Positions 34,214 through 34,466 of a DNA stretch of 64,000 nucleotides are shown one piece after another. The DNA is from Escherichia coli. Its GTDB lineage: Bacteria > Pseudomonadota > Gammaproteobacteria > Enterobacterales > Enterobacteriaceae. The notes under the pieces were generated by a model that made no database searches, had not been told where the DNA came from, and was given only the letters and a program-made list of their open reading frames with translations. Numbering within the stretch: the stretch's first letter is position 1; each line of letters begins with the position of its first letter. The position numbers were made by a program, and so were the translations under genes. The DNA is taken from NCBI RefSeq assembly GCF_045037415.1, contig NZ_CP173438.1; one strand, given 5' to 3'.

Positions 34214-34332
34214 ATTGGTTTGGTCCGGTGTTTCCCTGCTTGCACTTAAAAATGAGCGGATAGGAAACTCTCGAAATGGTTCGTCGATATGCTCACCTCG
34301 CACCTAATCACCTTACCGAACACGCACGGTAA
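34214..34332 (+). pseudogene. Remnant of a tyrosine-integrase 3' end (encodes ...[29 protein letters not shown]), copy A
   Basis: Integrase C-terminal signature with catalytic-Tyr context (RYAHL) interrupted by in-frame TAG; about 80% identical to a second copy at 45793..45879. Confidence 0.45.
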
Positions 34333-34421
34333 ATAGATTCGATCCTGAACCCATCGGTCCCAAATCTGTCCCAATCAAAAAATAAGGAAGGTATTAATGA
34401 TGTGTAACTTATTGATTTAAG

Positions 34422-34466
34422 TGGTGCCGATAATAGGAGTCGAACCTACGACCTTCGCATTACGAA
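34422..34466 (-). repeat. 45-bp direct repeat of the tRNA-Thr (thrW) 3' end; distal island boundary (att remnant)
   Basis: Identical to 46011..46055 of the intact thrW over 45 bp, then diverges. Confidence 0.8.

Follow-up and report, generated by a model that had tools for sequence, protein, structure and literature searches.

The thrW locus and its genomic island

The window, the whole stretch of 64,000 nucleotides that was analysed, carries the gene order ecpR-E, ykgJ, yagU, thrW, proA, proB and phoE, which is the K-12 order reversed, with a genomic island and two integrase remnants, here called scar A and scar B, lying between yagU and thrW. Many ST131 chromosomes, among them H105, 81009 and Z247 (O25b:H4), are 100% identical to the region, its junctions included, and the window is part of an Escherichia coli ST131 chromosome. 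Intact thrW, encoding tRNA-Thr(CGT), occupies 46011-46086 on the minus strand (ARAGORN; Rfam tRNA, 71.8 bits). The genes paoABCD, yagP and their neighbours, which lie between yagU and thrW in K-12, LH50-c and WCHEC96200, are absent from the ST131 backbone. Farther to the left, the ykgJ-yagU gap measures 249 bp here and 247 bp in K-12, which rules out an insertion there; within it PGAP annotates, in H105, a 120-bp CDS for a 'tail fiber assembly protein' (locus positions 12594-12713; ~32993-33112 in the window) that we suspect to be spurious.

The island is the GI-thrW of ST131 strain EC958/SE15, here with an extra IS1 in hsdS. It has been described as a 10.8-kb island at the thrW hot spot with a type I restriction–modification (R-M) system whose methyltransferase is M.EcoMIII (PMC3203889, PMC4134206, PMC4659465), and the thrW passages of these papers do not mention the flanking integrase scars. 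At its left end lies a P4-type integrase pseudogene (34634-35953, plus strand) with the domains of that family (Pfam Arm-DNA-bind_3, 2e-18; Phage_integrase, 4e-16) and one internal stop, at codon 112, which PGAP records as 'internal stop'. The cargo that follows consists of AbiEii/AbiEi (36118-37828, minus strand), hsdR (38070-41189), hsdM (41183-42820) and hsdS, the last interrupted by an IS1 (43087-43857) that is 98.8% identical to K-12 IS1B/IS1C. This IS1 is absent from ST131 strain H105, and it probably inactivates the specificity subunit of the GI-thrW R-M system in the present strain. To the right of the cargo are the Hfq-binding RNA isrK (44938-45015; Rfam, 68 bits) and the C4 antisense RNA (45037-45125; Rfam, 71.8 bits), after which the island continues with an 'ash' gene, a hypothetical gene and HTH', a truncated helix-turn-helix gene. 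With isrK and C4 beside 'ash', this end is a P4/P1-type immunity module and GI-thrW looks like a cut-down P4-like satellite; a phage search with the right end of the island (44850-45800) returned matches to the C4/isrK immunity region and one unannotated 1.5-kb record, and nothing else.

Within E. coli, a megablast search with the GI-thrW integrase matched a single version, the ST131-type copy at an identity of at least 99.9%, in 552 genomes, and found no closer or intact version of the gene. An intact integrase and a full pair of native arms are both missing from the island, the former through the stop at codon 112 and the latter in that the thrW-proximal end is a junction between HTH' and scar B. 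With its integrase dead and its proximal arm deleted, GI-thrW is locked in place.

At the end away from intact thrW, the island integrase adjoins a partial thrW copy of 45 nt (34422-34466, minus strand), which comprises the 3' end of the gene from the anticodon loop through the terminal CCA. This copy is identical to 46011-46055 in the intact gene, giving a 45-nt exact direct repeat at both boundaries of the island, and a 31-nt core pattern occurs twice against an expectation of 0. These 45-nt cores are the true island boundaries. The integrase diverges from the partial copy, unlike in the classical P4/CP4-57 layout, in which int lies downstream of, and co-oriented with, an intact tRNA. Dickeya oryzae, Citrobacter and Pectobacterium have homologues of the GI-thrW integrase at 73-75% identity, and at the Dickeya oryzae (locus 3803-3847) and Citrobacter sp. 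(420-464) loci, where the fragment layout was read, an inverted 45-nt thrW fragment lies ~170 bp upstream of the integrase, ending ...CATTACGAA, at the same base as in the window. The integrase loci of all three genera, Pectobacterium included, lack a complete tRNA. Because the fragment and its spacing recur with these homologues, 34422-34466 is the island's own distal junction, with scar A outside the island; it is the original thrW 3' end, displaced when GI-thrW integrated. By the same integration logic, the 3' 45 nt of intact thrW (46011-46055) would derive from the attP of the last occupant. A far-end, diverging integrase is a trait of this P4-type subfamily, the mirror of the tRNA-then-int arrangement, and not an anomaly of the window. 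In this subfamily the crossover falls in the anticodon loop, as in the lambdoid phages that use thrW.

Two integrase remnants at the thrW 3' ends

Each thrW 3' end is preceded by the end of an integrase gene. Scar A (34209-34407, plus strand), recognized by alignment to phage int genes and as a PGAP pseudogene, is a dead remnant of the last ~66 codons, and scar B (45792-45996, plus strand), where the match to HK542 int-attP begins at 45792, comprises the last ~67. In H105, PGAP labels both 'integrase; internal stop; incomplete; missing N-terminus'. The translations of both scars align with the Int proteins of SfII and HK542, and both retain homology to the C-terminal catalytic region of tyrosine recombinases, the part with the Tyr nucleophile and an end of the ...LGHxxxxxTxxYxH type. 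An uninterrupted, full-length reading frame with all the catalytic residues (R, K, H, R, H/W, Y) is lacking in both scars, of which ~66 codons are all that remains; both segments are gene remnants, not integrases.

The two scars are related to each other. MAFFT aligns 34209-34466 with 45796-46055, and blastn gives 73.8% identity over 263 nt (E = 2e-36), so the similarity that the sequence-only reading had proposed to verify by pairwise alignment is significant. Counted from the truncation point through the core, the scars are identical at 187 of 258 positions (72.5%), and a repeat search resolves the pair into three blocks of 81%, 75% and 94% identity. The earlier figure of about 80% fits the integrase-coding blocks (75-81%) and is too high for the segments as a whole. 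The last 45 nt of both are the identical thrW 3' ends described above.

The remnants also extend farther than had been thought. The sequence-only reading had ended the integrase segments at 34332 and 45879 and placed them about 100-130 bp from the thrW 3' ends; the frames run on to their natural stops at 34405-34407 and 45994-45996, each 14 nt from its core, and the supposed gap is a diverged integrase C-terminal tail. The nonsense lesions it had named, a TAG replacing a Trp codon in scar A (34261-34263) and a TAG at the catalytic Tyr codon in scar B (45877-45879), are both present, and the latter is the sole nonsense lesion of scar B. It had missed three further lesions in scar A: a TGA replacing a Trp codon at 34212-34214, a 2-bp deletion just before 34250, and a TAA replacing a Gln codon at 34330-34332.

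Against annotated phage int-attP DNA, the scars show 92-93% identity over 217-265 nt (E 1e-88 to 1e-107), which upholds the earlier identification of both segments as tyrosine integrase C-termini distinct from the island's P4-type enzyme. A search against phage integrases, which the same reading had suggested, returned phages that use thrW, in the HK542 and Sf groups; for SfII, the database entry describes the attP as 'similar to P22 bacteriophage attP'. The scars have the layout of SfII and HK542: int converges on the tRNA end, and its stop lies within ~15-20 nt of an attP core identical to the 3' ~45 nt of tRNA-Thr(CGU). The phage-type arm across the core (P'), which Int/Xis excision needs, is absent; the phage matches end exactly at 34466, and what lies beyond is the upstream region of the P4-type integrase. 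These data support the view that the scars are C-terminal remnants of thrW-specific lambdoid integrases together with an attP arm, and that they are unrelated to the integrase of the island.

Protein profile searches would by themselves leave room for a fortuitous resemblance, or for small functional genes or RNAs in place of integrase debris. Scar B matches Pfam Phage_integrase (PF00589) over 34 residues, at profile positions 137-170 of 172, with E = 0.003 and a score of 17.8 bits that falls below the gathering threshold of 27.1 bits, and scar A has no Pfam match. The extent and identity of the phage int-attP matches refute this reading, to which we attach practically no probability. The multiple stops and the frameshift do not suit a functional gene; no Rfam family lies over either scar, and the search for promoters and terminators gave nothing that exceeded shuffled sequence, its yield being a weak promoter-like site and, antisense to scar B, a weak hairpin resembling a terminator.

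Junctions, mosaicism and relative age of the scars

Scar A abuts DNA of phage origin. The 243 bp to its left (33966-34208, minus strand) come from the 3' end of a small 'hypothetical' gene in the late region of a lambda-like phage, with 83% identity to hypothetical genes adjoining the tail-fibre genes of phages HannyBb, ev207 and PhiR49_2, and they are what survives of the far side of a first prophage at this site. Homology of the yagU-paoA intergenic region to K-12, WCHEC96200 and LH50-c ends at 33965, and 33965/33966 is a second deletion junction, with the yagU-paoA intergenic region. No third copy of the thrW core, as expected at the far end of the first prophage, occurs left of scar A within the window; it was presumably lost along with paoABCD-yagP.

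The phage matches of scar A are of two kinds. Its 3' three-quarters with arm and core (34250-34466) is 93.5% identical to SfII int-attP and 93.1% to that of SfV/SfI/SfIV. Scored at the 83 sites at which SfII and HK542 differ, scar A is HK/SfX-like from 34209 to ~34270 (18 HK and 2 SfII sites) and SfII/SfV-like from ~34283 (4 HK and 55 SfII sites), with a Fisher p of 4e-12 for the breakpoint before correction for 77 candidate breakpoints. Scar A is thus a recombinant between the HK and SfII integrase lineages. Strain 500111 shares the left junction and the 2-bp deletion of scar A, is HK-type throughout and has an additional 29-bp deletion; the right part of scar A was therefore replaced by SfII-type sequence.

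Scar A is also found where there is no island. In strain FCI29, yagU, the same small hypothetical gene and an identical scar A are followed directly by intact thrW, and a synthetic query for this island-less junction found scar A directly against thrW in 80 of 5,426 genomes. Four of these match at 100%, one of them an O25b:H4-ST131 strain, ~14 are genomes of other lineages at 98-99%, each with a single matching place, and the remainder are of the 500111 type. The four identical genomes may represent secondary losses of the island and not the ancestral state. The diverged genomes, on the other hand, argue that scar A beside thrW is the older state, outside the island and predating it.

Scar B would have the opposite relation to the island. 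From 45792 to 46056 it is 92.8% identical to HK542 int-attP, with values of 92-93% across HK542, mEp213, mEp043, HK75, mEpX2 and SfX, and it is fused to HTH' (45644-45796, plus strand), defined by comparison with homologues and by PGAP, which has an internal stop and a 65-bp deletion and is without its last ~12 codons. An intact homologue of 84 amino acids is present in MRY15-131, within a related module of ash, hypothetical and HTH genes. The HTH alignment extends to GGCAA at 45792-45796, a sequence common to the HTH gene (caG GCA Ac) and to int (tgG GCA Agc), and HTH'/int' is a deletion junction at a 5-nt microhomology. Fused to a truncated island gene, scar B is likely to postdate the island. 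The sequence-only reading had placed scars of an older element on both sides of the island; the two-sided placement stands, and the refinement is that scar A predates the island and scar B postdates it.

The HTH'/int' junction is conserved in island variants that are 89-94% identical, with different cargo and in different chromosomal backgrounds. One of them is WCHEC96200, in which HTH' is labelled by PGAP as 'helix-turn-helix; frameshifted; missing C-terminus' and the junction is that of scar B, but the scar turns SfII-type ~45 nt in (15 HK and 1 SfII informative sites on the left, 1 HK and 65 SfII on the right; p = 3e-14). The 500111 and WCHEC96200 alleles together mean that both junctions, that between the hypothetical gene and int (hyp'/int') and HTH'/int', exist in HK and SfII versions, and these scars have thus been overwritten repeatedly by recombination. 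The variant island of WCHEC96200 (locus 14215-20685) keeps the frame of AbiEii/AbiEi (93% identical) and ash-hyp-HTH', has a 3.2-kb gene for an RNA-directed DNA polymerase in place of hsdRMS, and is without the P4 integrase and the distal thrW copy; compared with the window, defence cargo has been exchanged in a single slot. The 3' half of thrW in WCHEC96200 (locus ~20610-20660) differs from that in the window by two substitutions (T>G and A>C, read on the tRNA strand), which by our cloverleaf reading face one another within the T stem and would leave it paired. If the integration logic holds, this 3' half came from a phage attP.

Conservation of HTH'/int' across two island variants with differing cargo and backgrounds could also mean that scar B and its phage-type arm are an intrinsic, retained part of the GI-thrW attachment region, perhaps for mobilisation by the Int/Xis of a helper thrW phage, and the 11.6-kb segment between the repeats does include scar B. 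We regard this as improbable. At the junction an island gene is cut short within a 5-nt microhomology, which is a hallmark of illegitimate deletion; the arm on the other side (34467-34633) is that of the P4-type integrase and has no match among HK or Sf arms, so that phage Int/Xis would miss its second arm; the type of scar differs between island variants; and the island integrase is dead here.

The two scars share one property that serial arrival does not predict. Within the ambiguity left by microhomology, both begin with one and the same base of int, the G of GCTGGCTGG, which falls in the Ser codon of ...HTW-ASW... (34209/34210 and 45792-45797), and their left flanks are unrelated, a phage late gene in one case and the island HTH gene in the other. 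Two independent deletions would give the same start with a probability below ~1-3%, and the serial-occupation model offers no account of it. Other independent scars differ in the length of int (843 bp, ~55 bp). HK-type remnants sampled across the 5,426 genomes fall into only four truncation classes: remnants of full length, those that begin at the shared point, those of the ~55-bp K-12 type, and those with a later start resulting from the 29-bp deletion of the 500111 type. A preferred site of breakage or recombination inside int genes could underlie the coincidence. The Chi-like GCTGGCTGG at the truncation point was considered as its cause and rejected on the orientation argument for RecBCD and Chi: as the motif is oriented, protection would go to the side that was deleted and not to the one that was kept.

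The equal extent of the two copies, from the same int nucleotide to the end of the core, is also what a single crossover would give, and the ~260-bp repeats could then have arisen in one step, by RecA-dependent (Campbell-type) integration of a circular element carrying int', arm and core, followed by divergence. This is very improbable, in that the copies are 72.5% identical to each other yet each is ~93% identical to a different phage lineage, a pattern that divergence after duplication cannot produce. The junction at 34466/34467, moreover, coincides exactly with the att core boundary of homologous island integrases in other genera.

Probable serial occupation of thrW and comparison with known systems

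What is observed directly comprises the sequence homologies, the mosaic structure, the two deletion junctions, and the alleles that lack the island or differ in scar type. On this basis we consider it likely, with good though not full confidence, that both segments are non-functional scars of temperate phages that integrated serially at the thrW 3' end in the ancestry of ST131. In each such phage int reads toward attP and the 45-nt core is identical to the thrW 3' end, so that integration puts the 3' end of int against thrW. In the first step of our model, a lambda-like prophage with an HK/SfX-type int would have suffered an internal deletion joining a late-gene fragment to the last ~200 bp of int, and a second deletion would have removed its far end together with paoABCD-yagP. 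In a second step, a phage of the SfII/SfV type would have used the site and then been lost, the simplest route being homologous recombination of the 3' end of its own int with the old scar, converting the right-hand ~185 bp of the scar to SfII type and leaving the mosaic scar A. GI-thrW would then have used its P4-type integrase to enter at this 45-nt core as well, so that scar A and the former thrW 3' end came to lie beyond the far end of the island. Finally, a phage of the HK/SfX type would have integrated between the island and thrW, and a deletion at the GGCAA microhomology would have joined the HTH gene to the last ~200 bp of int, creating scar B and taking with it the proximal arm of the island, the middle core and nearly all of the phage.

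We infer the order of these events, and likewise that the mosaicism arose by recombination with a resident prophage. A phage that enters beside an old scar creates direct repeats of int 3' end, arm and core, the state found in KSC1031, and recombination between them would delete the phage and leave a chimera with the old left boundary. Alternatively, the mosaics could stem from allelic recombination between strains instead of from the loss of a resident prophage. Since the HTH'/int' junction is common to variants that are 89-94% identical in different backgrounds, the last step may have taken place in another strain, with the island and scar B imported by homologous recombination in the flanks.

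Tentatively, and with less confidence than in serial occupation itself, we speculate that the scar adjacent to thrW acts as a reused homologous 'exit ramp', by which RecA removes each new phage, rewriting the scar and keeping the old left boundary. For each new phage the homology would amount to ~200-260 bp of its own int-attP end. A mechanism of this kind would explain the occurrence of the hyp'/int' and HTH'/int' junctions each in HK and SfII versions.

The feature as a whole is ordinary prophage debris at a well-known tRNA hot spot, flanking a published island and already flagged by PGAP; it is no new kind of system, and neither the mosaicism of the scars nor their common starting point is more than a minor curiosity. 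Its use lies mostly in annotation and in tracing how the thrW hot spot evolved in the pandemic ST131 clone; the 'integrase' pseudogenes on either side are left from earlier phages and are no part of GI-thrW. The mosaic scars provide a small illustration of prophage remnants recombining with later phages at the same tRNA site.

Serial use of the site is seen directly in KSC1031, where the prophage next to thrW is intact and has an SfII-type integrase; an older HK-type scar of 55 bp, with its core, has been displaced to the far junction, beside yagP'. Together with the two phage lineages in the window, this strain bears out the earlier suggestion of serial occupation at thrW, with the correction that at least two integrase lineages took part and not a single different element. 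An arrangement comparable to the intermediate that the first step of our model calls for exists in 22F46, which has a decayed lambda-like prophage at thrW with an int' of 843 bp. The prophage of 22F46 also carries an anti-phage gene, Avs2 (AVAST type 2; locus 34930-39384), in its b-region, between the yagP' remnant and the tail-fibre genes.

The closest counterparts of the scars are the serotype-converting Shigella flexneri phages SfII/SfV/SfI/SfIV/SfX and the coliphages HK542, HK75, mEp213 and mEpX2, whose attP is related to that of P22. Beyond the int 3' end they have a short arm and then a core of 45-46 nt that repeats the thrW 3' end exactly. Phages of these Sf and HK groups are the sources of the scar sequences. 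Compared with them, the window keeps the last ~200 bp of int, with stops, and none of xis, gtr or the structural genes, and scar A combines two lineages that are separate in the phages.

The nearest chromosomal parallel is CP4-6 of K-12, in which intact thrW is likewise followed by an island, a far-end integrase reading inward and a partial thrW copy (ptwF); phage records cite 'thrW and ptwF' as this type of att site. Next to ptwF there is again a scar of the HK/SfX type, with ~55 bp of int and then the arm. The CP4-6 integrase IntF is only 27% identical to that of GI-thrW, yet it lies beside ptwF in the same way. The K-12 scar differs in being shorter than those in the window and non-mosaic, and K-12 has kept yagP-paoABCD. 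In K-12, finally, there is no scar beside intact thrW, where the end of CP4-6 itself abuts the tRNA gene.
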